A DNA stretch of 64,000 nt, taken from the IMG/VR virus record IMGVR_UViG_2872147552_000001; one strand, written 5' to 3'. Positions 1,091 to 43,675 of the stretch are shown here, in pieces. The notes below the pieces were generated by a model. The model saw only the letters and a list, made by a program, of their open reading frames with translations, was not told the DNA's origin and did not search any database. The DNA comes from a virus (taxonomy: Duplodnaviria; Heunggongvirae; Uroviricota; Caudoviricetes). The number at the start of each line of letters is the position of its first letter. Position 1 is the first letter of the stretch. A program made the translations under genes and the position numbers.

Positions 1091-1615
1091 ATGACAACCA
1101 AAGATATTACCTACGGTATCCAAGCTGAACTCTGGCCGCGAGATTACACTAACGTTGAAAAACTACTGATGTTCTGGCGCAGAGAACAAATTCCTGTAAG
1201 GGTCACTCTCGAAGATGGCCAGGCGTTTTGCATGTACGTTTATGGCCTCATGCCATCTCGTAACAAAGTTGACCTTTGCCCAGCCCCTTTTGACAAAGAA
1301 AATCGTATAAGGCTCCCACTTGAACGCATTAGTACAATTGAATCAGGTGTGGTTGACAGTATCGCTCACGATTTCAAAGGTCGACTAACAGTTCACCCTG
1401 ATTATGTCGATAATCGGCCATCACGCCGCGATTTTTTTGCAATTTGCAACCAAGCCTACAAAGCAAACAAATCTATAAGGGTGTACATGGCGGATGGCCG
1501 TGAAATTGAGGGGGTGTCAGCAGGCGCAGATGCTTGTCAGGTTACACTACGTGTCGAGAACGGTAGAAAAATAGTTGTTTTGTTCGATTGGGTTGAACGA
1601 ATTTTGCCTTTTTGA
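1091..1615 (+). CDS. hypothetical protein
   Basis: ORF track frame; first in-frame ATG after upstream stop at 1084-1086 chosen as start. Confidence 0.45.
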   Translation: MTTKDITYGIQAELWPRDYTNVEKLLMFWRREQIPVRVTLEDGQAFCMYVYGLMPSRNKVDLCPAPFDKENRIRLPLERISTIESGVVDSIAHDFKGRLTVHPDYVDNRPSRRDFFAICNQAYKANKSIRVYMADGREIEGVSAGADACQVTLRVENGRKIVVLFDWVERILPF

Positions 1616-2210: not shown

Positions 2211-2861
2211 ATGGCTAACATTATCATTTCTAAAAAATCCATCATTGAAGCTGCTTCCATTGTATCCGATGAACTGCGCGAAAAAGCAGATCTGGCAACT
2301 CAAACATATAACGAACATTATAAAAATGGTACGCACACTAAAGCAGACAAAGCAAATATGCAAGCTGCGACCACTAAACTTGCTTACTTCATCAACAACG
2401 TTGTAAACGCTGTAGAAGACGAAAAATTATGCTCTGTTTTCTACTATGCGATCAAAGCAAGCAAACAAGCGCCAGAAGTTTTTTTCCGTGATGCAATGAC
2501 TAACAGTTATTCTCTGGAAAAACTGGTTTATCTGGTCAAATCAATTAAATCTGGTAAATGCGTTTATTCCGTCGCTGATATGTCAGGATCTCGTGTATTT
2601 GCTTTAATCGATATGATTAACGACGAGATCGACACGTTCACCAATGGCGCTGTTTTCGATTTAATGAATGAAGCTAAAAAAGCGTGCGAAATTAAATTGG
2701 ACGCTGGCTATACTCAAGCCAACCAGTTGATCAATCTTTGCGAACGTCTCGGACTTGTTGAAAAAGTCAAAGGAGCTGGGAGCGCGAAAGCTGGTACTCA
2801 GCAATATCGCTTCGTTAAAAATGATTTTTATAACTATCTGGCTGATGCTTTTAAAGCGTAA
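2211..2861 (+). CDS. hypothetical protein (216 aa), AT-rich module
   Basis: ORF with AAGGA RBS; no family recognised. Confidence 0.5.
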   Translation: MANIIISKKSIIEAASIVSDELREKADLATQTYNEHYKNGTHTKADKANMQAATTKLAYFINNVVNAVEDEKLCSVFYYAIKASKQAPEVFFRDAMTNSYSLEKLVYLVKSIKSGKCVYSVADMSGSRVFALIDMINDEIDTFTNGAVFDLMNEAKKACEIKLDAGYTQANQLINLCERLGLVEKVKGAGSAKAGTQQYRFVKNDFYNYLADAFKA

Positions 2862-3365: not shown

Positions 3366-3370
3366 AATCG

Positions 3371-3395
3371 AGCGCCCATAGTGGGCGCTTTTTTC
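3371..3395 (+). terminator. rho-independent terminator
   Basis: agcgcccatagtgggcgct hairpin followed by TTTTTT. Confidence 0.6.
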
Positions 3396-3415
3396 GTTTC
3401 CAATACTCCCACCAT

Positions 3416-3446
3416 AGCGCGCCATCATTGGCGCGTTTTTTATTGT
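3416..3446 (+). terminator. second tandem terminator
   Basis: agcgcgccatcattggcgcg hairpin followed by TTTTTT. Confidence 0.55.
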
Positions 3447-3854
3447 CTTTAACTCACTCCAACAACATAAAAATAAGCGCCAAAATAACGCCATAGACGC
3501 GCTTTTATATCCTTACCAGTACATACCCATTACTTAGCACATTAACGCGCTTAAAATGCGTTATATTGCGCTATAACGTATGGCTAATCATTGGCTTTTA
3601 TTCTTGCTATGTGATCCGCGTTTATTTGTCGGCGCGGATCGGCATTTTGTGTTGTTCTGTATCCGCTCGCGTATTATGTGCGCGTGATTTTTCACATAAT
3701 CACACCACTTAATCACGTATGTGATTACGCTACGAAAGAAATCTGGATGTCTCAGGCGACGAAAGTCATCATAATTTTCCCCGCTCGCCTGTCCGACAAC
3801 CGCTGGTTGGATTCCACCAGCTTCCCGATGTTTTTTTCTACATAAAGGCGAATG

Positions 3855-3970
3855 CAGCCGTTTCCCGAAAAAATCCTGGCCGTTTCCCGTCGGCTCATGA
3901 ATACGTTCCTCGCCGTTTCTGAAAATTTCCCTGCGGCAGCTGGTGGCTATAGAGAAAGGGCCGTTTCTGG
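3855..3970. repeat. cluster of four GCCGTTTC(C/T) direct repeats
   Basis: cagccgtttcccgaa, ggccgtttcccgt, cgccgtttctgaaaa, ggccgtttctgg within 115 bp. Confidence 0.6.
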
Positions 3971-3982
3971 CCCTCTTCTCAG

Positions 3983-4465
3983 TTACACGCCATCAAGGAT
4001 GTGGATGCGGTTGCTTGCGTATACATTCAGCATAAAGTTAGCGCAAAACAGTTTCCATGTATCAACGCCAGCGGTATACGTAATGTTTTTGCATTTAATC
4101 GCATTGTTGGCGATCCGCATCCCCTGCGATACTGCTTCATCGTCGGAAAATTTGAACGACGATTGAGTTTTAATCCAGACAGAAATCTGCGTAGCGAACT
4201 CAATCAGCTTGGACTGGCAGAATCGCCCGGAGCGCACCGGAAAGACGAACGTTCCGAATCCAGAATTTACCACATACGCTTTCTCAAATACCCGCGAGTA
4301 ACGACGATTGCCAATGATGTCGCGTGCAATAATGCATTTTTCTTGTGCTGACAGTTCTACCGTCTCATTGTCGCGCCATGCACCAAGTACTCGTTTTTCA
4401 ATGTCAGAGAACGTTACAGCGATATTGCCATGTGCGGGTGCGTTTACAGTAGCGATAAAATTCAT
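3983..4465 (-). CDS. hypothetical protein (160 aa)
   Basis: ORF with AAGGA RBS; upstream GATAAT -10 and palindromic leader motif. Confidence 0.5.
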   Translation of the reverse strand: MNFIATVNAPAHGNIAVTFSDIEKRVLGAWRDNETVELSAQEKCIIARDIIGNRRYSRVFEKAYVVNSGFGTFVFPVRSGRFCQSKLIEFATQISVWIKTQSSFKFSDDEAVSQGMRIANNAIKCKNITYTAGVDTWKLFCANFMLNVYASNRIHILDGV

Positions 4466-4486
4466 GATTAATTCCTTATCGTAAAT

Positions 4487-4497
4487 AACAAATTGTT
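4487..4497 (-). promoter_or_regulatory. class A palindromic leader motif (AACAAnTTGTT)
   Basis: aacaaattgtt about 22 nt upstream of the start at 4465. Confidence 0.5.
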
Positions 4498-4640
4498 TTC
4501 TTGTTGGTGTTAATTATCGTTGTACGAATAAGGCGTCAAAGTGGAAAGTTGCGGTAGCCGGACGGGAACAGGTGGGTTTGTCGGTTGCCTGGAGGTAAGA
4601 GGTTGGTGTTTTTAGCCTGCGGGAAACAGGATGGTCATTT

Positions 4641-4664
4641 AAGGCCACCAGCATTGGTGGCCTT
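4641..4664 (-). terminator. conserved GGCCACC hairpin at gene 3' end
   Basis: aaggccaccagcattggtggcctt directly after the stop at 4670; one of five related copies. Confidence 0.45.
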
Positions 4665-4669
4665 AATCT

Positions 4670-4951
4670 TTAGTGGAGCAGACCGATGTCGATGGTATCC
4701 CCTGAATCATCCACACGGATCATCAGCATGGCGAAGGCGTTTAGTGGATAACTGGCGTGCCATTCAGGGAAGCGGTCATCTCGCATGAAGTCGGCAATGT
4801 CGTAAACGCATCCCTCAAAGTGGAAGAATCGCGTGCTTACCTGCTCGTCATATTCCACATGATCCATTTCTTGCTGTTCTGTTTCCGGCAAGTCCAGCCA
4901 TGATTCAAGGAATACATTTTGTGCTTTAGGGGTAATGGTGAAATCAGTCAT
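4670..4951 (-). CDS. hypothetical protein (93 aa, acidic)
   Basis: Start moved to the ATG with GAGGA RBS (MTDFTITPK...); ORF track start lies upstream of the promoter motif. Confidence 0.45.
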   Translation of the reverse strand: MTDFTITPKAQNVFLESWLDLPETEQQEMDHVEYDEQVSTRFFHFEGCVYDIADFMRDDRFPEWHASYPLNAFAMLMIRVDDSGDTIDIGLLH

Positions 4952-4970
4952 GAGCATATCCTCACTGCGT

Positions 4971-4984
4971 AAACATGTTGTTTT
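4971..4984 (-). promoter_or_regulatory. class A palindromic leader motif
   Basis: aaacatgttgtttt about 20 nt upstream of the start. Confidence 0.45.
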
Positions 4985-5111
4985 CTTGTTGGTGTAATTA
5001 TCGCAGTGTAGATAAGGCATAAAAGAAGTTAATACAGGCTGAATACACAAGAAAGGTTCTGGAAGTTGATAGCCAGGTTTCAAACTAACCTTCGGTTATT
5101 AAAAGTCATTT

Positions 5112-5135
5112 AAGACCACCAATGCTGGTGGCCTT
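5112..5135 (-). terminator. conserved GGCCACC-type hairpin
   Basis: aagaccaccaatgctggtggcctt. Confidence 0.4.
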
Positions 5136-5140
5136 AATAA

Positions 5141-5284
5141 TTATCGACCGATTACGCTAAGGATCTTTTCCTCAACTGATTTGTTGTTGCGACTAAACTG
5201 CCTTGCGTATCTGATGACAGAAGAGGCGTTTTGCTTTCTGACCATCTCGGCTCTTTCCTTCAGGCGTTTCTTGAAATCGCCCAT
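5141..5284 (-). CDS. possible small basic protein (47 aa), not in ORF track
   Basis: ATG 2 nt after the stop of the upstream gene; MGDFKKRLKERAEMVRKQNASSVIRYARQFSRNNKSVEEKILSVIGR; ends just before the hairpin. Confidence 0.25.
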   Translation of the reverse strand: MGDFKKRLKERAEMVRKQNASSVIRYARQFSRNNKSVEEKILSVIGR

Positions 5285-5286
5285 AT

Positions 5287-5661
5287 TTACCACCAGGCGC
5301 AGAAGGTCAGTCTGTTATTGTGAAAGTCGTGGTTCTTAATCAGATCTTCCACAATCTCTTTCAACTCCCCCACATCATGCCAGTAACCTTCATCGTACTC
5401 CTGACTGCCGAAGAAAAAACCTTCCCGGGTAGGCAAGTACTCTTCGCAATTACTTTCGTTTATGTGCATCAAATGAGCCTTCAGAAAACAAATGTCATTC
5501 ATCGTTAATTCTAAAAGCTCACAATTTTCGACTTCACCTACGTTGCGCTCCATCCACCCAACGAGCGCATTGAACTTACGGAAGTAAGCAACCTGCTTTC
5601 TGGATGCCTCGTTATTCAGATCGTTTTTAGGCTGTGTCTCGATATAGATATCAAGTCCCAT
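5287..5661 (-). CDS. hypothetical protein
   Basis: Start set at ATG with AAGGAAA RBS (MGLDIYIETQ...). Confidence 0.45.
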   Translation of the reverse strand: MGLDIYIETQPKNDLNNEASRKQVAYFRKFNALVGWMERNVGEVENCELLELTMNDICFLKAHLMHINESNCEEYLPTREGFFFGSQEYDEGYWHDVGELKEIVEDLIKNHDFHNNRLTFCAWW

Positions 5662-5718
5662 GATGGTTTCCTTATTAAGTTGCTTCAGTGAAATCATTTT
5701 CACAAATCAGATAAGGCA

Positions 5719-5732
5719 GAAAACAAATTGTT
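5719..5732 (-). promoter_or_regulatory. class A palindromic leader motif
   Basis: gaaaacaaattgtt upstream of the start. Confidence 0.45.
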
Positions 5733-5778
5733 ATCGGGCATAAGAAAATGGCGCGGTTTACGCGCCATTTAAAGAGGA

Positions 5779-6174
5779 TTAAGCGAATACGCTTTCAGGG
5801 ATTAAGGTGTCGGCAGGAATGCCAGAGGTAATGCGCAGGCCGTACTGACCAATCCAGGCAGTGTTGGTATTCAGGTTGGAGGCGAATACGGTGTCAACCA
5901 TATTCATCATTGGTTCAAACACCTCTTCATCAACCTGGCGGAAGTAGTTCTCGATTTTCAGCAGCAGCGGGTCAGTTGCATCGAAAATAGACTGGTATTG
6001 AATCGCGTACTCGCCGCCGGAGGCATCACCTTTACGCACGATCGTACTGGCCTGGACTTCGGCACCAGTTTCGGTGTTGTACGTAACAACGGTGATTTTT
6101 GCCACATTCTTACCTTCGGCGGTTTCAGAGGCATAGTAAACATCAACTGTCAGTTTTTCGCGTTTAACGGTCAT
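5779..6174 (-). CDS. hypothetical protein
   Basis: Start set at MTVKREK ATG with GGAGAG RBS. Confidence 0.45.
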   Translation of the reverse strand: MTVKREKLTVDVYYASETAEGKNVAKITVVTYNTETGAEVQASTIVRKGDASGGEYAIQYQSIFDATDPLLLKIENYFRQVDEEVFEPMMNMVDTVFASNLNTNTAWIGQYGLRITSGIPADTLIPESVFA

Positions 6175-6216
6175 TTCACTCTCCGTAGTGTATTGGTTAT
6201 TTTTATATTCTATGAT

Positions 6217-6233
6217 CGTAAGTATGTACTTAC
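6217..6233 (-). promoter_or_regulatory. class B palindrome (TAAGTA..TACTTA type)
   Basis: cgtaagtatgtacttac about 45 nt upstream of the start. Confidence 0.4.
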
Positions 6234-6300
6234 AATACAAAAAAGCCCCGTAAGGATGGCGGGGCTGTCGTACTGTCGACTAATTACCACTTGCACATTA

Positions 6301-6612
6301 TCAGGCTATTGCCATCACTGATGCTCTCTGAATTTCTTGCTGGGCCACGCGGTTAACTTCCATCAAAGCCAGTTCGAGCTGATGTTCCGGCCACATTCTT
6401 TGAAATGCCATCCAGCCTTTTCCACGCTGGCGACGAACATTCATTACATAACGAGTAAAGGTGTTTTTATCGAAAGACACCGCTGTTTCACGGAACAGAC
6501 GAATAGAGGTTCCATTGGCAACGATGTCCAGCAAAGTTAATTGAGCAACCAGCGCAGGCTTCTCTTTTCTCTTCTGGTCTTTGTCCAGACCAAGAACCAA
6601 TGATTTTTTCAT
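6301..6612 (-). CDS. hypothetical protein (103 aa)
   Basis: Start at ATG with GGAG RBS (MKKSLVLG...). Confidence 0.45.
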   Translation of the reverse strand: MKKSLVLGLDKDQKRKEKPALVAQLTLLDIVANGTSIRLFRETAVSFDKNTFTRYVMNVRRQRGKGWMAFQRMWPEHQLELALMEVNRVAQQEIQRASVMAIA

Positions 6613-6623
6613 CACAACTCCGT

Positions 6624-6637
6624 AAACAACTTGTTTT
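6624..6637 (-). promoter_or_regulatory. class A palindromic leader motif
   Basis: aaacaacttgtttt 12 nt upstream of the start. Confidence 0.45.
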
Positions 6638-6737
6638 CTCAATGGCGTAAATAATACCAGTAAGAAAACGGCTACAAAGCATAATGATCAGGTGCATGAT
6701 CGATATGCAGGTTCTTCCCTGCGGCTACATATTAAGT

Positions 6738-6756
6738 TAAGCCAGCAATGCTGGCT
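6738..6756 (-). terminator. hairpin (variant of GGCCACC family)
   Basis: aagccagcaatgctggctt downstream of the gene ending at 6767. Confidence 0.35.
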
Positions 6757-6766
6757 TTGGTTGGGG

Positions 6767-7096
6767 TTACTCGAATACTTCAAGAAACTCCTGAACGTCC
6801 CAATGCTGGACGAGGTGAAGATAGACCTTAGAAATCACGTCATTTTCGCTATCGCATGTGAAGTAGTACTTCTGGCTGCGGTTGTATGTGTCCACACAAA
6901 ATTCGCTCATATCCATAAAGTCAGCATCTTCACCCATGTCGCAAATCATCAAAGCAGGTGCGTCATCACGAGTCATCAGCTCAAGCACCCACCGCGAATT
7001 GATCAGAGTGGAAGACCAACCTTCTAACTCATAAAACTGATCAAACTCTTTTTGAGTTAATTTCTTGATTTGGTTGATGTCGATATTTGCAAACAT
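6767..7096 (-). CDS. hypothetical protein (109 aa, acidic)
   Basis: Start at ATG with AAGGA RBS (MFANIDINQ...). Confidence 0.45.
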   Translation of the reverse strand: MFANIDINQIKKLTQKEFDQFYELEGWSSTLINSRWVLELMTRDDAPALMICDMGEDADFMDMSEFCVDTYNRSQKYYFTCDSENDVISKVYLHLVQHWDVQEFLEVFE

Positions 7097-7108
7097 AAAG
7101 CAATCCTT

Positions 7109-7122
7109 AAACAACTTGTTTT
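7109..7122 (-). promoter_or_regulatory. class A palindromic leader motif
   Basis: aaacaacttgtttt followed by GATAAT-like -10. Confidence 0.45.
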
Positions 7123-7457
7123 CTTGATGGTGTTATTATCGCAATAACGCACAGGCGAAAAAGGATTTTATTCCGGTGAATGTGGTTTTGGCAGTGAGTT
7201 TTCAGGTTCAGTACCGAGTACACTTTTTACATTATTCTGATTTAGTGGCCGAAGGTGGCTGGTGGGCAGAATAATCATCTCCCCGAAAACCTACTGAAAT
7301 CGATTGTGACCCGTTGGCTGTCTGGCACAATTACGCTGTAGCTGGGCATTCAGAGGGAGTCCAACGGTAAGTTAGTCCGCCTGCACGTGAGCGCCTCTCT
7401 TCTTCCCGCACATTACAGGTGGGTAGCCGCAACTCTCCCTCACGCTATACCGGTACG

Positions 7458-7595
7458 CCGCCGTTCCTGAACCGGCATCGAGCCTTTTCCCGAAATCCAC
7501 ACAGGCAACTCGACCGTTTCCCTGAAAACCTCCAGCCGTTCCCCGAAGGCAACCCAGCCGTTTCTGTAGCGGGATGCAGCTTTTTCCCTGTATGG
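7458..7595. repeat. second cluster of CCGTTTCC-type direct repeats
   Basis: cgccgttcctgaa, cgaccgtttccctgaaaa, cagccgtttccccgaa, cagccgtttctgta; same family as 3855-3970. Confidence 0.6.
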
Positions 7596-7599
7596 ACCG

Positions 7600-8640
7600 A
7601 AGGCTGACCGTAGGGGTGTTACGGGGGATAAAATCAGGAGTTGAATAAATACGAAAAAGGAGGCGACACCCCTCCTTCCCTCCCCACTTATACATACCTG
7701 GCTTCTTCGCTATACATGTTGTGTTTTATTCGTGTTTTATCTGTCTCAACCTCTCTATGGACGTTAACACTCACTCCTTCCAGAACGTTCTATACGGCGA
7801 CTAATTCTGTTGGTGAATTGGGTGTGTTGTTCTCTCTGTCGGTGTATGTGGTTTCGTTCGTTTTGCGGTGGTTCTTCTATGGGGTGTTCTCGTCGTTTTG
7901 GTGATTGTTCTTCTCCGTGTATGGAGTAATGGCAGGTGGGCGATTCCTTTCGTTGTTGTGTTTGAGTTGTTTGTCTGGAGTGTGAAAGGCTTTTGTAGTT
8001 ATTCGTGTATTGGGTAATGGCGTTTCCCGTGATTGTTCTGTTTCGTGTCTTTTGGGATTGAGAGAAGCCTTGCGGTTACAGGCTTCGTTGGGGGTTCAGT
8101 GATTCTGGTGTTTCTTCGCTGTTTGGGTAATGGCGTGTCGTGGGTATCGCGCGTATGAATGTTTTCGGATTGCCTGTGAAAGTTAGGTTGGTTGTCCGGT
8201 AGCCTGGGGAGAAGAGGTGGGTCTTTTCGGTAGCCTGCCATAAAGAGGTTGGTTGTTTTTGGAAATGGCATATGTGTTATTTAGTTGTTTTGTTATGCCT
8301 GAAAATAAGTTGTTTATATGGTTATGTAACGCAACGGGAACGATTTTGAGCGTGTGTTTTTGTTGGTAGTGTGTTGGGTCGTCTGTGGTGAAAATTGGAC
8401 GCTGTGGCGCTGTCTGCTGCGTAGAATTACGGGTATAAGCAGTGATGTGTGAAAACGTCAATTTTTTAGACCAAATAGGGTGAAAGCGTTGATGTTTCGT
8501 TGATCTGTTATTTAGTTGTTTTCTTGTTTGTATAAACAACTATAACCTATTGATATTTAAGGATGTGATTGCGGGTATGGAAGGGGAGTAGTGGCGATCA
8601 ACGGATTCTTATAGAAAAGAATCAAATTGTGACCGCCATT
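7600..8640. other. ORF-poor, GT-skewed noncoding region with degenerate repeats
   Basis: Plus strand strongly G+T rich; recurring gggtaatggcg and ggtagcctg units; only low-complexity ORFs. Confidence 0.5.
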
Positions 8641-8649
8641 ATCAATGTT

Positions 8650-9429: not shown

Positions 9430-9729
9430 TTACCAGTTCCAGCACTCAAGCCCTTCAACGACCGGTGCACCACAATCAAAATGTACAGAGTCAAAGCCTA
9501 CATCAAGTACTTTCTGAATGTTAGCAATCGCGCCTTCGGATATACCATATCGACGCAAGTCCTCTTTCCAGACATCATCCTGTAACCCGGCGTGGACAAT
9601 ACAACCGCCGTCAATTTGCGAAACCCAATCCAGCTCATTGCTTGCGATCATGAATCGGCGAGCATCTTCCTCTGATGTATGAGATGAACTGATCAATGCC
9701 ACCTGGTAGGCTTGGGTAATGTTCAACAT
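9430..9729 (-). CDS. hypothetical protein (99 aa)
   Basis: ATG with GGAG RBS; class A motif in leader. Confidence 0.45.
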   Translation of the reverse strand: MLNITQAYQVALISSSHTSEEDARRFMIASNELDWVSQIDGGCIVHAGLQDDVWKEDLRRYGISEGAIANIQKVLDVGFDSVHFDCGAPVVEGLECWNW

Positions 9730-9741
9730 TTCAACCACTCC

Positions 9742-9890: not shown

Positions 9891-11924
9891 TTACTTAACC
9901 TGGTGGCCAGGTTTAGCACCAGCATCCGGGCTTAACAGGAAGATATCTTTCCCGCCGGGGCCAGCAGCCATCACCATGCCTTCAGAGATACCGAAGCGCA
10001 TTTTACGTGGTGCCAGGTTAGCCACCATAATGGTGTGACGACCAATCAGTGCCTGTGGATCTGGATAAGCGGAACGGATGCCTGAGAAGACATTACGCTT
10101 TTCACCACCGAGATCCAGCGTCAGGCGAAGCAGTTTGTCAGAACCTTCTACAAACTCTGCGTTTTCAATCAGCGCCACGCGCAGGTCAACTTTGGCGAAG
10201 TCGTCAAAGGTGATAGTTTCCTGAATCGGGTCGTCAGCCAGTGGGCCAGTTACCGGTGCGGCTGTGGCTTTCACTTCTTCTTTGGATGCTTCCACCAGTG
10301 CTTCAACCTGCTTCATATCGATGCGGTTATACAGTGCCTTGAACGGATTTACTTTATGGCCCAGCAGCGGTTGCTGGATACCATCCCAGGTCAGTTCTGT
10401 ATTCAGGAATGCTTCTGCACGTTCAGTCAGTTTCGGCAGTACCGGCTTCAGGTACGTCATCAGCACGCGGAACAGGTTAATGCCCATAGAGCAAATCGCC
10501 TGCAGATCGGCATCGCGACCTTCCTGCTTCGCCACCACCCACGGAGCCTGTTCATCGACATAGCGGTTAGCCAGGTCAGCCAATGCCATGATTTCACGGA
10601 TAGCTTTACCAAATTCGCGGCTTTCCCATGCTTCGCCAATCACTTCAGCGGCATCAGTAAAGGTTTTGTACAGTTGCGGGTCAGCCAGTTCGCTTGCCAG
10701 CACGCCGTCAAAACGCTTGTTTATAAAGCCTGCATTACGGGAGGCCAGGTTAACCACTTTGTTCACGATATCGGCATTCACGCGCTGAACGAAATCCTCC
10801 AGGTTGAGATCGATATCATCAATGCGCGAAGAGAGTTTCGCAGTGTAGTAGTAACGCAGGCTGTCGGCGTCAAAATGATTCAGCCAGGTGCTGGCTTTAA
10901 TAAAGGTGCCGCGAGACTTGGACATCTTCGCGCCGTTCACCGTCACATAGCCGTGAACAAACAGGTTGGTCGGCTTGCGGAAGTTGCTGCCTTCCAGCAT
11001 GGCAGGCCAGAACAGGCTGTGGAAGTAAACAATATCTTTACCGATGAAGTGGTACAGCTCGGCGGTGGAGTCTTTCTTCCAGTATTCATCGAAGCTGGTG
11101 GTATCGCCGCGCTTGTCGCACAGATTCTTGAAGGAACCCATGTAGCCAATCGGCGCGTCCAGCCAGACGTAGAAATATTTGCCCGGCGCGTCCGGAATTT
11201 CAAAACCGAAGTAAGGCGCATCGCGGGAGATATCCCACTGTTGCAGGCCGGATTCAAACCATTCCTGCATTTTGTTCGCCACCTGCTCCTGCAACGCGCC
11301 GCTGCGGGTCCATGCCTGCAACATTTCGCTGAAAGAAGGCAGATCAAAGAAGAAGTGTTCGGAATCACGCATTACCGGGGTAGCGCCAGAAACCACCGAT
11401 TTCGGCTCGATCAATTCAGTCGGGCTATATGTTGCGCCGCAGACTTCACAGTTATCGCCGTATTGATCTGGCGCTTTACATTTCGGGCAGGTGCCTTTTA
11501 CAAAACGATCCGGCAGGAACATGCCTTTTTCCGGGTCGTACAACTGAGAGATAGTGCGGTTTTTAATAAAACCGTTCTCTTTCAGGCGAGTATAGATAAG
11601 CTCAGACAACTGACGGTTCTCTTCGCTGTGCGTCGAGTGATAGTTGTCATAGCTGATGTTAAAGCCTGCGAAATCAGTCTGGTGTTCCTGACTCATTTCG
11701 CCAATCATCTGCTCCGGTGTGATACCAAGCTGCTGCGCTTTCAGCATGATCGGCGTACCGTGGGCATCGTCGGCACAGATGAAATTAACCTCGTGGCCGC
11801 GCATTCGCTGGTAACGAACCCAGACATCAGCCTGGATGTGCTCCAGCATATGGCCGAGGTGGATTGAGCCGTTAGCGTACGGCAGCGCGCACGTCACCAG
11901 AATTTTCTTCGCGACTTGGGTCAT
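9891..11924 (-). CDS. metG: methionyl-tRNA synthetase
   Basis: 677 aa from [26 protein letters not shown] (HIGH motif) with KMSKS and C-terminal tRNA-binding domain; very close to enterobacterial MetG from memory. Confidence 0.9.
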
Positions 11925-12081
11925 AGTAGGCATTACTTCTTTGTAGTGAAAAGGGGCTTGATAGTAACAAAATGGCCTTATGTCTGCCATGTGATAACAG
12001 CATTTCTCATAAATGATTAAATGTCGTAGCTGGAGTACACTACAAGGCGACAATTGCGCAAATTAAAATAAAGGAGACGGG

Positions 12082-13182
12082 ATGAGCGAGTCCAAATCGC
12101 CGGATGCCCTGAGAGCAATGGTAGCCGGTACGCTGGCTAATTTTCAGCACCCAACCCTGAAACACAACCTGACTACGCTTAAAGCGTTACACCATGTTGC
12201 GTTGATGGATGACACACTGCATGTCGAACTAATCATGCCTTTCGTGTGGAATAAGCCTTTTGAAGACCTGAAAGAGCAATGTAGTGGTGATCTGCTCCGT
12301 ATCACTGGCGCAAAGGCTATTGACTGGAAGCTGTCGTACAACATTGCCACGCTTAAGCGCGTCAAAAACCAACCAGGCATTAATGGCGTTAAGAACATTA
12401 TCGCCGTCAGCTCAGGCAAGGGCGGCGTGGGTAAATCCTCCACGGCGGTAAACCTGGCACTGGCGTTGGCTGCTGAAGGTGCGAAAGTTGGTATTTTGGA
12501 TGCCGATATCTATGGTCCATCAATTCCAACCATGCTGGGTGCGGAAAACCAACGTCCAACCTCACCTGACGGTACTCACATGGCACCTATCATGTCTCAT
12601 GGCCTGGCAACCAACTCTATTGGTTATCTGGTCACCGACGACAATGCAATGGTGTGGCGTGGACCGATGGCCAGCAAGGCGCTGATGCAGATGTTGCAGG
12701 AAACTCTATGGCCTGATCTGGACTATCTCGTTCTCGATATGCCGCCGGGCACTGGTGATATTCAGTTGACGCTGGCGCAGAACATTCCTGTAACTGGTGC
12801 GGTTGTGGTAACTACGCCGCAAGACATCGCGCTGATCGATGCGAAGAAAGGCATTGTGATGTTCGAAAAAGTCGAAGTGCCGGTACTGGGTATCGTCGAA
12901 AACATGAGTGTGCATATTTGCAGTAACTGCGGTCATCACGAGCCAATTTTTGGCACCGGTGGCGCACAGAAACTGGCCGAGAAATACAACACGCAGTTGT
13001 TAGGCCAAATGCCACTTCATATCTCTCTTCGTGAAGATCTGGATAACGGAACACCAACCGTTATTAGTCGTCCAGATAGCGAATTTACGGCTATTTATCG
13101 TGACCTCGCAGATCGCGTTGCCGCCCAAATGTATTGGCAAGGTGAAGTAATACCTGGCGAAATCGCATTCCGCGCAGTGTGA
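12082..13182 (+). CDS. apbC: Fe-S cluster carrier ATPase ApbC/Mrp
   Basis: P-loop SSGKGGVGKS, CxxC (CSNCGHH); divergent from metG as in enterobacterial chromosomes. Confidence 0.9.
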   Translation: MSESKSPDALRAMVAGTLANFQHPTLKHNLTTLKALHHVALMDDTLHVELIMPFVWNKPFEDLKEQCSGDLLRITGAKAIDWKLSYNIATLKRVKNQPGINGVKNIIAVSSGKGGVGKSSTAVNLALALAAEGAKVGILDADIYGPSIPTMLGAENQRPTSPDGTHMAPIMSHGLATNSIGYLVTDDNAMVWRGPMASKALMQMLQETLWPDLDYLVLDMPPGTGDIQLTLAQNIPVTGAVVVTTPQDIALIDAKKGIVMFEKVEVPVLGIVENMSVHICSNCGHHEPIFGTGGAQKLAEKYNTQLLGQMPLHISLREDLDNGTPTVISRPDSEFTAIYRDLADRVAAQMYWQGEVIPGEIAFRAV

Positions 13183-13183
13183 T

Positions 13184-13210
13184 AAAAAGGCGGTGCATTG
13201 CACCGCCTAA
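13184..13210. terminator. bidirectional terminator between apbC and umuD'-like gene
   Basis: aaaaaggcggtgcattgcaccgcc hairpin; T-run on minus strand. Confidence 0.6.
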
Positions 13211-41482: not shown

Positions 41483-41700
41483 TTATCCACTGGATAGATC
41501 CAAATAAGAGATCCCAAGTAAGATCAAATAGAAGATCCAAAGAGATCCCAGATCGCCTCTAGCCGTTGCGGTTACTGGTCTGAAAGGGTGTTGCCATCCA
41601 CTATGGAGAGCAAAGAAACCTCTGTAGAGAGCTGAATAACCGCTATGAAGAGTAAAACAACCACTCTGGAGAGCTGTATATATCCACTGTAGAGAGTAGA
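41483..41700. promoter_or_regulatory. origin-like unit 1: DnaA box, GATC cluster, iteron array
   Basis: TTATCCAC at 41483; six GATC in 41497-41554; five approx 21-bp-spaced iterons CCACTnTrGAGAG 41596-41700. Confidence 0.6.
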
Positions 41701-41808
41701 GCACATTGTCTTTTATGGATAACTTAATGACTTAATTCTTCATTAACATACTGATATACATAGATATATTTTAAACTCTACTCTTAGTCATGATTCTTAT
41801 GTCCTTAA

Positions 41809-42098
41809 ATATCCACAGAAGAGTAGAGTTACCTGTTCTTGAAATCCTCTGATTTTTATCCACAGGCCCGATCCAGTAATTCAGATCACAAAGAGAACCA
41901 AAGAGACCCATAAAGACCCAATAAGATCCCCGCCCACCTCAAACCGTTGTGCCATCTGCCTTCAGACATGATCGATATCCACTATAGAGAGCGAATAATC
42001 CACTATAGGGAGCAAAGCAACCACTATAGAGAGGAGAAAAACCACTATAGACGGTAGGATAACCGCTGTGATGAGTGCTACTATCCACTGTAATCAGC
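41809..42098. promoter_or_regulatory. origin-like unit 2 (incC-like): DnaA boxes, GATC sites, iterons before repA
   Basis: ATATCCACA 41809, TTATCCACA 41856; GATC sites; six iterons 41976-42098. Confidence 0.65.
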
Positions 42099-42138
42099 AA
42101 AGGCCACCAAAGCCGTCGAATAACAAGAGACATTTGGA

Positions 42139-43194
42139 ATGAGCGAAAACGGCAATAAAAACATAGCGATCGTTGAAGCATTTTCAGAAACAGATAAAAA
42201 GACAGGCGAAGTTGTTACGTTGGTTCCTAACACTAATAACACTGTTCAGCCTGTTGCTTTGATGCGTCTGGGCCTCTTCGTTCCGACGCTGAAATCGACA
42301 TCCAGAGGAAGAAAGGGGCAAATGGTCTCTATGGATGCCTCTGCTGAACTCAAACAGCTGTCTCTGGCAAAAGCCGAAGGGTACGAAGACATAAGGATCT
42401 CTGGCCTTCGGCTTGATATGGATAACGACTTTAAAACGTGGGTGGGAATAATCCACGCGTTTGCCAAACACAAGGTCGTTGGCGATACTGTCACGTTGCC
42501 GTTCGTTGAGTTTGTAAGGCTGTGTGGCATTCCGACCGCCAGGTCATCAGCGAAGTTACGCAAACGCCTGGACAGTTCGCTAAGCCGTATTGCCACAAAT
42601 ACCATCTCGTTCCGTAGTAAAGGCTCTGATGAGTTTTACGTAACGCATCTTGTGCAAACGGCAAAATATAGTGTCAAGCACGATACGGTCGAACTGAAAG
42701 CAGATCCCAAGATTTTCGAACTCTACCAGTTCGACAAAAAGGTTCTTCTGCAACTCCGGGCTATAAACGAACTCTCAAGAAAAGAATCCGCTCAGGCGCT
42801 TTATACTTTTATTGAAAGTTTGCCGCCTGATCCGGCACCAATATCACTAGCCCGTTTACGCGCCAGACTTAATCTGACAAGTCGCACTATTACTCAGAAT
42901 GCGACGGTAAGAAAGGCTATGGAACAGCTGCGAGAGATAGGATATCTCGATTACACGGAAGTTAAGCGCGGAAACTCGGTCTACTTCGTCATCCACTATA
43001 GGCGGCCAAAGTTACGCCAGGCACAAATATCAACAAAAATCGATAATGATGAGACGGAATATAGCCTCCCAGATGAGAATCAAGATGACATTATCGACGT
43101 TGTGCCTGACGAAAAAGAAGGCAAAATGGTCATGTTGAGTAAAGAAGAACTGGCGCTTCTCGAAGAGTTGCGCAAGGCAAAGACTCGCAAATAG
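42139..43194 (+). CDS. repA: replication initiator RepA (P1/RepFIB iteron-binding type)
   Basis: [77 protein letters not shown] recalled as hallmark of P1/RepFIB RepA; iterons on both sides. Confidence 0.85.
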
Positions 43195-43196
43195 CC

Positions 43197-43675
43197 CAAC
43201 CACTGTAGTTAGTAGTAAGGCTCACTATCCACTGTAGTGAGCCTTACTTATATCTGTAATTCGCTATCCACTATAGTGAGTATCGTTATCTGTTGATAAC
43301 CACTGTAGGCAGTAGAATGCAAATACTGAATTAAATGTTAGTGATCACTAACACTGATGAAACAAGGGCTGCGAGGTTAGTGGTCACTGGGTATCTTGGA
43401 AAATTTACTGTCTATAGTGGTTGTTGTCGCCCTCATCTTTGAGCGTATCCACTGTGGCGAGTGGATATCCACTGAAAACAGCAAAGGCTTACTCACCATA
43501 GTGTATACCCGCTGGACATCTCACTCCAATACTCACCATAGTGGTTGTTTGATGCGAATGAAAGGCTGTCTACTCGCTACAGTGGTTAGCAGATATGTAG
43601 GAAGAGAGGACTGCAGACCACAGTGGATAATGAGCTGATACGAATGCGGTGAGCTGGCTACTCACCGCAGTGGTT
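43197..43675. repeat. incA-like iteron array downstream of repA
   Basis: At least ten CCACTGTAG / CTATAGTGG type iterons in both orientations. Confidence 0.65.

Follow-up and report, generated by a model that had tools for sequence, protein, structure and literature searches.

Iterons (P1 incC/incA, F oriS, RK2 oriV) are short direct repeats that lie about two helical turns apart in one orientation, and clusters of them bracket genes in P1 and F and lie kilobases apart in P4 (ori plus crr) and SPP1 (oriL plus oriR), whose origins have distant repeat clusters. In the centromeres R1 parC, pB171 parC1/parC2, and TP228 parH, two direct-repeat clusters lie on either side of a small set of genes, and a single small protein binds both clusters cooperatively. 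P1 parS also has several non-palindromic heptamers (box A), which are, as VirB sites are, binding sites of the ParB family, and the centromere sites of N15 are dispersed. The consensus sites of ParB and Noc-type proteins are TGTTTCAC-GTGAAACA (parS) and TATTTCCC-GGGAAATA (NBS) (PMC7383237). In the left terminal repeat of T5-like phages, two conserved untranslated repeat regions 1.85-4.26 kb apart flank poorly conserved small pre-early genes, followed by 1.2-1.6 kb of noncoding DNA (Davison preprint, 10.1101/866236).

Here, we describe two arrays of direct repeats in a phage-plasmid of the SSU5/pHCM2 type. Unlike iterons, the arrays have no Rep-type initiator between or beside them. Unlike the par centromeres, they have no ParA/ParM motor between or beside them, and the genes that they enclose are variable. 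The window, i.e., the whole 64,000-nucleotide stretch that was analyzed, matches E. coli LF82 pLF82 (phage Cyrano) at 98% identity; whole-element results are for the LF82 plasmid (108,379 bp). Comparisons were made within the SSU5/pHCM2/pMT1 kin, using about 80 relatives that include SSU5, pHCM2, a deep Klebsiella lineage, and 77 IMG/VR loci, together with one alignment over 5 genera and one over 63 unique relatives.

Anatomy and uniqueness of the two arrays

The initial annotation had reported same-strand repeats in noncoding DNA at 3855-3970 and 7458-7595. Repeats are indeed present at both places, all on the + strand, with the unit aGCCGTTTCCcGAA and the constant part GCCGTTTCC (Table 1). 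The copy numbers differ from those first given. Cluster 2 holds six copies rather than three to four. For cluster 1, three of the four reported copies are in phase. The fourth (GCCGTTTCT at 3960-3968) lies within the stem and loop of a minus-strand terminator hairpin, 48-49 bp from the third copy and hence off the helical phase, and is perhaps not a genuine site. A quasi-palindromic core had also been proposed, and GTTTCCCnGAAAAC holds in only about 3-5 of the 10 copies. The copy at 7513-7529 contains a near-palindrome, GTTTCCCTGAAAAC (7516-7529; 12 of 14 positions match).

Table 1. Positions of the arrays and neighboring features in the window
Feature	Position	Strand	Description
216-aa protein gene	2211-2861	+	best-conserved neighbor left of the arrays; candidate binder, on weak grounds
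Lead-in TTTCTACATAAAGGC	3835-3849	+	directly left of cluster 1; nearly invariant (5-genus alignment, 63 unique relatives)
Cluster 1	3857-3925	+	three phased aGCCGTTTCCcGAA copies, starting at 3857, 3879, 3912; spacing 22, 33 bp
Conserved block ATTTCCCTGCGGCAGCTGGTGG	3926-3946	+	highly conserved columns in the 5-genus and 63-relative alignments
Terminator hairpin of the 160-aa gene	3952-3979	-	GGGCC-gtttct-GGCCC; seen in the minus-strand fold
160-aa gene	3983-4465	-	sole gene always present between the arrays
Variable island of small genes	4466-7200	-	content and order differ among LF82, pHCM2, Klebsiella, Enterobacter, SSU5
Cluster 2	7460-7591	+	six phased copies, starting at 7460, 7482, 7513, 7535, 7557, 7579; spacing 22, 31, 22, 22, 22 bp
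Conserved noncoding block right of cluster 2	7592-7700		GTTACGGGGGATAAAATC ... TTGAAT..TAC ... GCGA.CCCCTCC ... CTTATAC
Skewed noncoding region, ~0.9 kb	7700-8645		G+T content of 65-78% (+ strand) over most of the region

The offsets of the phased copies (0, 22, and 55 bp in cluster 1; 0, 22, 53, 75, 97, and 119 bp in cluster 2) correspond to whole turns at about 10.8 bp per turn, which places all sites on the same helical face. The 9-mer GCCGTTTCC, allowing at most one mismatch, has 24 matches in the window versus 12.6 +/- 3.2 in shuffled sequences (none of 100 shuffles reaches 24), and 8 of these 24 fall inside the two clusters. First-order Markov simulations (n = 200, 64 kb each) gave at most 2 same-strand matches per 130 bp, compared with 4 in each cluster of the real sequence. 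When a weight matrix was derived from the ten copies, scores of at least 14 in the window fell solely within the two clusters; in the LF82 plasmid, all 11 matches of at least 13.5 lie in the clusters and the best elsewhere scores 13.3, a scan that is circular since the matrix was trained on these same sites, and that agrees with the unbiased 9-mer count. In the 108-kb element as a whole, the unit is confined to the two same-orientation clusters. As had been suggested, the repeats are distinct from the repA iterons (ATCCACTATAGAGAG, 21-bp spacing, 41596-43280), which have another sequence and lie 37 kb from the arrays.

The arrays are DNA-level elements, neither coding nor structured RNA. Alignments of relatives show indels of 1, 9, 10, and 16 nt within the arrays and next to them, and since non-triplet indels occur, the DNA is noncoding, as first annotated. 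Fold z-scores of -0.27, +0.71, and -0.45 give no structured-RNA signal on either strand. Some records annotate open reading frames that span the array DNA.

Conservation across relatives

Both arrays, with their orientation and spacing, are kept in about 80 relatives, including SSU5, pHCM2, and the deep Klebsiella lineage; all relatives have the repeats, without scattered copies elsewhere. The orientation is identical in both clusters throughout, and copies are spaced by 22, 31, 33/34, 44, 53-55, or 66 bp. Cluster 1, with its 22/33-34 spacing, is also found in pHCM2, pMT1, Enterobacter, the 77 IMG/VR loci, and SSU5 itself, and two of its three copies score in the Klebsiella locus. The spacing of cluster 2 is shared by pHCM2, Enterobacter, SSU5, and most IMG/VR loci, fewer of its copies score in Klebsiella-type loci, and the cluster is missing from pMT1. 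Since pMT1 is maintained with cluster 1 only, array 2 is dispensable for plasmid maintenance. Among the 63 unique relatives, the repeat cores rank with the best-conserved columns in noncoding DNA that changes fast elsewhere. In the deep Klebsiella lineage, the motif is unchanged (GCCGTTTCCCGAAAT) while identity is only 31-48% for the proteins neighboring the arrays; it is higher for the packaging-operon proteins (TerL 90%, ABC ATPase 86%, ParB-like proteins 66%).

The initial annotation had also considered the arrays as boundary repeats of an inserted segment. This is not supported, given that the arrays, like the 160-aa gene between them, occur in essentially every relative, and no relative without the inter-array segment was seen among those compared. 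The DNA immediately left of each array cannot be aligned between genera, and homology picks up again at about 3834 (BLAST segments begin at 3834/3835, at the lead-in) and about 7427-7436. Each array is the left edge of a conserved block, not a scar. The block right of cluster 1 includes a degenerate, off-phase repeat copy (TTTCCCTG) and a Chi octamer (GCTGGTGG, 3939-3946), of which TGGTGG is invariant and the complete octamer is not preserved in pMT1 and Enterobacter (5-genus alignment). In relatives, the stem of the adjoining terminator hairpin shows a compensatory change to GGGGC...GCCCC.

That the arrays flank a variable set of small minus-strand genes was borne out, with an inter-array distance of 1.48 to 4.49 kb among relatives. 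Four island genes each have their own copy of a conserved promoter/leader element (AACAAnTTGTTTTCT, + strand), which has 23 matches over the window and is not limited to the bracketed segment, and several have their own hairpin terminator. Right of cluster 2, the conserved block carries a minus-strand terminator-like hairpin (7654-7680) in this window that is not kept in pHCM2 or in the relative L081. Beyond it lies the plasmid's most skewed kilobase, with a GC skew reaching +0.56 and an AT skew reaching -0.64. Every relative carries this skewed region in physical linkage with cluster 2, and the many 1-bp indels in its alignment (65-68% identity) show it to be noncoding.

Candidate binders of the arrays

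The phasing and the deep conservation fit the earlier proposal of protein-binding sites. Binding by a protein, the identity of the binder, and the role of the complex are what we infer from this pattern. Our best explanation, which we put forward tentatively as plausible rather than probable, is that the clusters are cis-acting, helically phased predicted sites for one conserved, element-encoded DNA-binding protein, preferably of the ParB N-domain type. Each array sits at the left edge of a conserved module, array 1 next to the 160-aa gene and array 2 next to the 100-bp conserved block and the skewed untranslated region. The binders would be the element's own ParB N-domain (ParB/Noc/VirB-type) proteins, whose genes belong to the packaging operon, some 6.5 kb to the left and outside the window. 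The core GTTTCCC would serve as a ParB-family half-site; with three to six of these on the same DNA face, a higher-order complex could nucleate at each array, and the two complexes may bridge, or spread across, the intervening 1.5-4.5 kb.

The core GTTTCCC is one base off the parS half-site GTTTCAC and one off the NBS half-site ATTTCCC (PMC7383237), a 6/7 heptamer match that may be due to chance since the motif was set against dozens of known motifs. In the whole LF82 plasmid, GTTTCCCTGAAAAC is the sole match with at most 2 mismatches to GTTTCMCGKGAAAC, and this copy is kept in pHCM2, SSU5, Enterobacter, and L081. LF82, pHCM2, Klebsiella, and the deep lineage each encode a pair of ParB_N proteins in conserved synteny (pMT1 also has two genes, the retrieved Enterobacter stretch only one), and the fact that no other site is assigned to them counts in favor of the link. 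Against it, their genes lie in the packaging operon and not beside the arrays, their NCBIfam scores are below the curated cut-offs, and they show only the N-terminal (GxxRxxA) domain, with no recognizable ParB-type helix-turn-helix. In addition, ParB-family sites are 16-bp palindromes bound by dimers, whereas here direct half-sites lie 22-33 bp apart, and the 4-bp spacer of such sites is 2-3 bp here where a second half exists. Array 1, moreover, occupies a convergent, terminator-flanked gap, an odd location for a transcription regulator, and an extra silencing system is not required, since the island promoters already have their own palindromic operator-like element.

No ParA is adjacent to the arrays; a ParA-like gene with its own small partner (117 aa) lies about 40 kb from the arrays. 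A classical partition role is unlikely given this distance and the maintenance of pMT1, which has a separate P1-type par system, with cluster 1 only.

Alternative readings

A rather unlikely alternative is that the arrays and the C-poor untranslated region bound a terminally repeated or first-injected virion segment with small early genes, as in T5, and are read by terminase/packaging-operon proteins or by a host protein during injection. Here, as in the T5 left terminal repeat, arrays 1.5-4.5 kb apart surround non-conserved small genes. In the T5 record, annotated TGTGCAAATCCGACA direct repeats (DRD) all lie on one strand, and a G-rich, C-poor stretch whose GC skew reaches +0.71 comes after a run of six repeats, with the annotated terminal-repeat end just past this stretch; here, six same-orientation repeats are followed by a region of GC skew +0.4 to +0.56. 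Both are large siphovirus genomes with distantly related TerL proteins (25% identity, E ~1e-19), the ParB-like genes are part of the packaging operon, and array 2 has been lost from pMT1, which is not known to produce phage. However, the T5 repeats differ in sequence, no protein or DNA homology was found between the T5 repeat region and the array region, and the paired elements of T5 have inverted orientation and DnaA boxes, whereas the arrays are direct with one nearby DnaA-box match. TerL is at least as similar to that of Jersey-like phages (E ~1e-25), which use headful packaging, and the arrays are 10-13 kb from terS, while known pac sites are usually in or beside terS. The literature searched holds no terminus data for any SSU5-like phage, and the T5 repeats themselves have only a candidate role as an injection stop signal.

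It is improbable that the arrays are operators or boundaries for a non-ParB factor that loops or insulates the island, such as the 216-aa protein or a 92-aa protein (317-595). The bracketed genes have strong sigma-70-type promoters, and the 216-aa protein is the most conserved neighbor (83-88% identity across genera and 48% in the deep lineage versus 31-35% for other neighbors), with the stretch 'YTQANQLI.L...LG.VE' invariant even there. In LF82 lysogens, expression of the 92-aa gene (CYRAN_117) is 12-fold above background (PMC9928086). The C-terminus of the 216-aa protein resembles a winged helix in our own reading, but the protein has no Pfam, PDB, or NCBIfam match, no DNA-binding domain is detectable in either protein, and the model of the 92-aa protein has a pLDDT of 53. 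Neither array overlaps a promoter, array 1 lies past the island's last terminator, and unchanged binding specificity is not expected of such a factor at 35-48% identity.

Equally doubtful is a two-part lytic origin of the P4 or SPP1 kind, in which a phage initiator binds both clusters and the skewed region is the start of unwinding or priming. The anatomy is iteron-like (22-bp spacing, direct orientation, two clusters), the repeats differ from the plasmid-mode repA iterons, the element has replisome genes of its own (DnaE, DnaB-like helicase, primase, SSB, UvsW-like helicase), and pMT1 lost array 2 and the skewed region yet replicates as a plasmid. However, neither array has an AT-rich unwinding element, a DnaA-box cluster, or a GATC cluster beside it, no recognizable initiator gene is adjacent, and the GC-skew profile of the plasmid shows a local spike but no switch at the arrays. 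At its right edge, the skewed region has leader-type promoter elements that face leftward, and a leftward transcript of the region would be C/A-rich and therefore unfavorable as an R-loop primer.

An RNA-level element, i.e., GGGAAACGGC at the 3' ends of a C/A-rich RNA and the island transcript, bound on the minus-strand transcript by CsrA or a FljA-like protein, is very improbable. Both arrays do lie 3' of minus-strand transcription units, GGA occurs in many copies, and a FljA-family gene (FljA being an RNA-binding repressor of flagellin synthesis) lies at 1091-1615 (PF03614, E 1.5e-84; weak Hfq-like match). Nevertheless, the fold signal is absent on both strands, 3 of 10 copies lack GGA (GCCGTTTCT), a terminator hairpin precedes array 1 in the direction of transcription, AACGGC as the most constant part does not match a CsrA-type site, and whole-turn spacing is meaningless for RNA. 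It is just as improbable that the arrays are functionless relics of local tandem duplication carried with conserved neighboring DNA, since although simple duplication can yield a 22-bp period and array 1 of the deep lineage contains a fresh 34-bp duplication, spacers and flanks diverge around conserved cores, and two loci keep motif, orientation, and phase across lineages whose neighboring proteins are 31-48% identical.

We found no paper in the literature searched that describes the two arrays, with their place, orientation, and spacing kept across SSU5/pHCM2/pMT1 relatives. If the arrays are indeed sites for the ParB N-domain proteins, the variable early-gene island would be organized or silenced in the plasmid state, or marked for the packaging machinery.

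Clustering, phasing and conservation of the repeats

The real signal of the repeats is their clustering. Counted with at most one mismatch, the 9-mer has 24 matches against 12.6 ± 3.2 expected, and while no more than two same-strand matches per 130 bp were found in 200 Markov simulations, each of the two clusters holds four. In a weight-matrix scan of the window, all scores of at least 14 fall inside the two clusters. The initial annotation had proposed searching the rest of the replicon, and in the complete 108-kb LF82 plasmid (pLF82) scores of at least 13.5 are likewise confined to them, the best score outside being 13.3.

The copies of aGCCGTTTCCcGAA (see table) lie at offsets of 0, 22, and 55 bp in cluster 1 and of 0, 22, 53, 75, 97, and 119 bp in cluster 2, so that neighboring copies are 22, 31 or 33 bp apart, every one on the + strand. 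These offsets approximate whole turns at ~10.8 bp per turn, and the sites therefore lie on one face of the helix. Of the four copies first annotated at 3855-3970, three are firm; the fourth, at 3960, belongs to the terminator hairpin of the 160-aa gene, whose stem shows compensatory change in other genera, and is out of phase because it lies 48 bp from the neighboring copy. Cluster 1 is thus made up of three firm sites and one doubtful one. The repeats annotated at 7458-7595 are present, numbering six rather than three to four. The single orientation described for them extends to all relatives, and their noncoding setting is borne out by frame-breaking indels in relatives and by spacings that are not multiples of 3, which together rule out coding repeats. 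They are also, as first stated, distinct from the repA iterons, which are unrelated ATCCACTATAGAGAG repeats at 21-bp spacing (41.6-43.3 kb).

Coordinates of the repeat copies and of other features discussed (window positions unless marked LF82)
Feature	Position	Strand	Remark
Array 1 (cluster 1), copies of aGCCGTTTCCcGAA	starts 3857, 3879, 3912, 3960	+	3960 doubtful
Array 2 (cluster 2), copies of aGCCGTTTCCcGAA	starts 7460, 7482, 7513, 7535, 7557, 7579	+
Element AACAAnTTGTTTTCT	4487, 4972, 5718, 6625, 7110, 9744, 9791
Element AACAAnTTGTTTTCT, further sites, among others	13729, 18002, 22546, 23275, 33490, 45220
Skewed noncoding region	7700-8645
FljA-family gene	1091-1615	+	PF03614
DUF5983 gene	9430-9738
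metG and apbC/mrp	~9891-13184 (LF82 77069-80360)		divergent pair
Packaging operon	LF82 60952-64954		order: ParB-like, ParB-like, ABC-type ATPase, 296 aa, 88 aa, TerS, TerL; left of window

Some 170 E. coli plasmids of ~110 kb match the region 3400-8200 at 98-99% identity, among them pLF82 (NC_011917); pLF82 and phage Cyrano are one and the same element. Remoter matches occur in Klebsiella, Enterobacter, Salmonella (pHCM2 and phage SSU5), Citrobacter, Cronobacter, and Yersinia pestis (pMT1). Because of the matches to pLF82, pHCM2, SSU5, and pMT1, we classify the window, on its sequence, as an SSU5/pHCM2-type phage-plasmid with an IncFIB repA. Phage-plasmids of the SSU5/pHCM2/pMT1 type are often found in clinical E. 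coli, Klebsiella, Salmonella Typhi, Enterobacter, and Y. pestis.

More than 700 plasmid records carry the arrays. Both occur in pHCM2 and Enterobacter with identical spacing, in a Klebsiella locus with fewer scoring copies, and in SSU5, a proven phage. pMT1 has array 1 only, since an IS1541-associated deletion took out everything from the third island gene up to nrdB; 55 Yersinia records match array 1 versus none for the array 2 region. In pMT1 of Y. pestis Angola (L004, 7318-10111), an IS1541 copy marks this ~24 kb deletion relative to pLF82, which joins the second island gene to nrdB with loss of array 2, the skewed region, and the segment from metG to thymidylate synthase. The 160-aa protein recovered 77 IMG/VR loci, of which 64 contain both arrays, co-oriented and separated by 1.48-4.49 kb; in most of the remaining 13, the DNA obtained stops short of the second array. 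Copy spacings in the 77 loci are always 22, 31, 33/34, 44, 53-55 or 66 bp.

Conservation extends to a deep Klebsiella lineage (L087, L146), in which synteny and the motif GCCGTTTCCCGAAAT are unchanged at both array positions, at protein identities to this element of 31% (160-aa), 35% (92-aa), 35% (FljA-like), 48% (216-aa), 58% (TerS), 66% (ParB-like proteins), 72% (helicase), 86% (ABC ATPase), and 90% (TerL). Few columns in alignments of 63-68 unique sequences are better conserved than the repeat cores. Altogether, the pair of phased repeat arrays is real, deeply conserved, and specific to this lineage.

The island and the DNA around the arrays

The gene content between the arrays differs and is shuffled among relatives, the 160-aa gene being the only constant member, and the smallest islands hold two genes. 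The variable segment flanked by the arrays is where these phage-plasmids swap small early genes. The repeats were initially suggested to be boundary repeats of an inserted segment, a proposal that fails on their direct orientation in all relatives and on the lack of an empty-site relative among >700 plasmids. Transposon or insertion ends, which would need inverted clusters and empty sites, are rejected on the same observations.

For ~250 bp to the left of each array, no alignment is possible between genera; homology restarts ~22-30 bp ahead of the first copy, at 3834/3835 for array 1 and 7427-7436 for array 2. Each array opens a conserved block. Array 1 is followed by a TTTCCCTGCGGCAGCTGGTGG stretch that includes a Chi octamer, then by the terminator and the 160-aa gene, and array 2 by ~100 bp of conserved noncoding sequence and then by the ~0.9-kb skewed region. 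The latter is the plasmid's most skewed kilobase, with 65-78% G+T on the + strand over most of its length; GC skew reaches +0.56 and AT skew -0.64. pHCM2, Klebsiella, Enterobacter, one further locus (L081), and the deep lineage share this skew at a sequence identity of only 65-68%, and the many 1-bp indels in this alignment indicate that the region is noncoding. Motifs of the GGTAATGGC(A/G) type recur within it. RNA transcribed from it on the minus strand would contain much C and A but little G, and so resemble a Rho-loading site or an unstructured RNA. A + strand promoter to the right of cluster 2 was rejected, given that the candidate hexamers are unconserved owing to a 10-bp insertion in pHCM2.

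A + strand operon ends at two strong GC-rich hairpins with T-runs (3370-3390, which reads as a terminator on both strands, and 3416-3437). Between these two and the hairpin at 3952-3979, array 1 is left in an interval toward which the terminated transcription units on either side converge. Repeats of the TGTGATTA / TAATCACA type (gtgatttttcacataatcacaccacttaatcacgtatgtgattacg), both inverted and direct, form an operator-like cluster at 3684-3730, in the variable spacer that precedes array 1; the cluster is not conserved in other genera.

Several further features were observed. The element AACAAnTTGTTTTCT, with the palindromic core AACAAnTTGTT, occurs 23 times within two mismatches versus ~1 expected; at island genes it follows the -10 region and precedes the start codon. 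It is also found outside the bracketed island, and it resembles an operator or leader that serves the early promoters genome-wide. Near-identical 28-nt terminator hairpins at 4639-4666 and 5110-5137 stand in opposite orientation (96% complementary), each with a Chi octamer in its stem (GCTGGTGG or CCACCAGC); Chi is present in 16 copies per 64 kb versus ~2 expected for a random 8-mer. The only domains found in array neighbors are those of the FljA-family protein and DUF5983. The former is a full-length member of the phase-1 flagellin repressor family (E 1.5e-84) that also shows a weak Hfq-like match, is kept in LF82, pHCM2, pMT1, SSU5, and Klebsiella lineages, and may repress host flagellin synthesis post-transcriptionally. 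The divergent pair of metG (methionyl-tRNA synthetase) and apbC/mrp, which are arranged in the same divergent way on the E. coli chromosome, appears to have been captured from a host. The annotation of phage Cyrano names the apbC-like gene MinD, and lysogens express it (PMC9928086).

What the arrays may do

It is probable, judging from phasing and conservation, that the arrays are DNA-level protein-binding sites. Our preferred reading, which is tentative, is that ParB-type proteins would nucleate on the half-site arrays and that the nucleated complexes would then bridge or spread across the early-gene island. The ParB site is TGTTTCAC-GTGAAACA and the Noc site TATTTCCC-GGGAAATA (PMC7383237). 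The repeat core GTTTCCC agrees with both half-sites ((G/A)TTTC(A/C)C) at 6 of 7 positions, with one substitution. However, parS and NBS are 16-bp palindromes bound by a dimer, whereas the arrays consist of direct half-sites, most copies being without a second half. The best palindromic copy matches 12/14 positions, and the copy at 7516-7529, GTTTCCCTGAAAAC, is conserved and is the plasmid's sole match with at most two mismatches to the ParB/Noc-family 14-mer. A canonical parS-like palindrome, GTTTCAAGTGAAAC, at 385-398 in the 92-aa gene agrees with 13/14 positions of the chromosomal parS core, and is attributed to chance because neither LF82 nor any other relative checked has it.

Two ParB-N-domain proteins, WP_000382660 and WP_000161986 in LF82, head the packaging operon, an arrangement kept in the deep Klebsiella lineage at 66-90% identity (TerS 58%). 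Their Pfam E values are 1e-8 and 3e-13, and that to Spo0J (1vz0) is 3e-9, with NCBIfam scores under the cut-offs; they match Spo0J, ParB, Noc, and KorB structures across the N-terminal domain only, the ParB HTH being unrecognizable.

A T5-like genome-end signal is possible, if unlikely. The T5 terminal repeat has two conserved untranslated repeat regions, 1.85-4.26 kb apart, around non-conserved small pre-early genes, followed by a long noncoding region (Davison, 10.1101/866236). In the T5 record, six same-orientation TGTGCAAATCCGACA repeats precede a G-rich, C-poor stretch, with the annotated terminal-repeat end just past it. In both systems, small early genes that are not conserved lie between conserved noncoding repeat regions, accompanied by a long untranslated region, which makes the T5 terminal repeat, by analogy of layout, the closest architectural parallel found; the element's TerL is also distantly related to that of T5. 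The T5 region differs in its paired DnaA boxes within inverted 131-bp elements, whereas the arrays here are direct and a DnaA-box match lies at 3688 only. No homology was found between the array region and the T5 terminal-repeat region, and the literature searched holds no terminus data for SSU5-like phages. We know of no proven function for the T5 repeats.

A two-part lytic origin is improbable. The arrays share with Rep-type origin iterons, which are tandem repeats of ~17-22 bp, a direct arrangement in whole helical turns (22, 31 or 33 bp). Domain searches found no Rep domain (Rep_3/RepA-type initiator) in any neighbor, repA lies ~37 kb away with different iterons, the match at 3688 is the single DnaA box near the arrays, no AT-rich unwinding element or IHF signature lies beside either array, and the plasmid's GC-skew profile, dominated by gene orientation, shows no switch at them. 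A classical origin is excluded by the lack of a DnaA-box cluster, an AT-rich element, and an adjacent initiator.

That a non-ParB regulator binds the arrays is rather doubtful. As binders, we rejected the 160-aa protein (a good model with no known fold or structural relative, and only 31% identity in the deep lineage), the 92-aa protein as a ribbon-helix-helix protein (a poor model without profile support), and the 216-aa protein as a winged-helix protein (no detectable domain, and no profile or PDB support). The 216-aa protein, the best-conserved neighbor, is retained as a weak candidate. To our knowledge, none of the binding sites of E. coli regulators considered (PhoP, OmpR, Cra, PurR, sigma-28, sigma-E, sigma-54, and others) fits the motif. 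On sequence comparisons, the ParB family appears the better lead than these three proteins, a lead and not a result.

Quite improbable is a composite of these readings, in which the arrays and the skewed region would form a two-part cis element restricted to SSU5-family phage-plasmids and read by the packaging operon's ParB-like CTPase-type proteins. It would mark out an early-gene segment that is terminally repeated or delivered first, as a functional counterpart of the T5 terminal-repeat region. If true, a ParB-family protein would be used for phage genome-end or early-region organization instead of partition.

The remaining readings were rejected. Direct-repeat centromeres of type Ib/II par systems lie directly beside or ahead of an operon for a small adaptor and either ParA or ParM, which the arrays do not; a ParA-like gene and its 117-aa partner lie at LF82 31.4-32.4 kb, and domain searches found no ATPase domain in island genes. 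An RNA element is opposed by folds no better than shuffles on either strand, and the Rfam match is chance and located elsewhere. For an array shared with unrelated replicons, a genome-contig scan for two cores 22 bp apart returned SSU5-like elements, chance matches, and unrelated tandem repeats. A Prevotella MAG (RGIG4775; L103, L105, L112, L123, L126, L140) has intergenic 22-bp tandem repeats, GCCGTTTCCCGAATTGTAAACC and variants, on several contigs beside housekeeping genes such as dnaK, recA, and miaA, with the 12-nt core and period in common with the arrays. They are unrelated to the phage-plasmid and probably represent one repeat family dispersed in the MAG.

Implications for the SSU5 family

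The literature searched (motif; SSU5 origin, iterons, and packaging; variable regions) does not describe the array repeats, nor any further cis-acting sites of the SSU5 family. Those known to us are repA, its iterons, and the par system (pMT1). As a deeply conserved, unique, phased pair, the arrays are a strong candidate for a new cis-acting site of the family. The identity of the binder would give a handle on how these elements control, package or replicate their variable segment, and would test the recruitment of ParB-type proteins to a non-partition role in phages. It may also open a route to curing or destabilizing phage-plasmids via titration of the binder.
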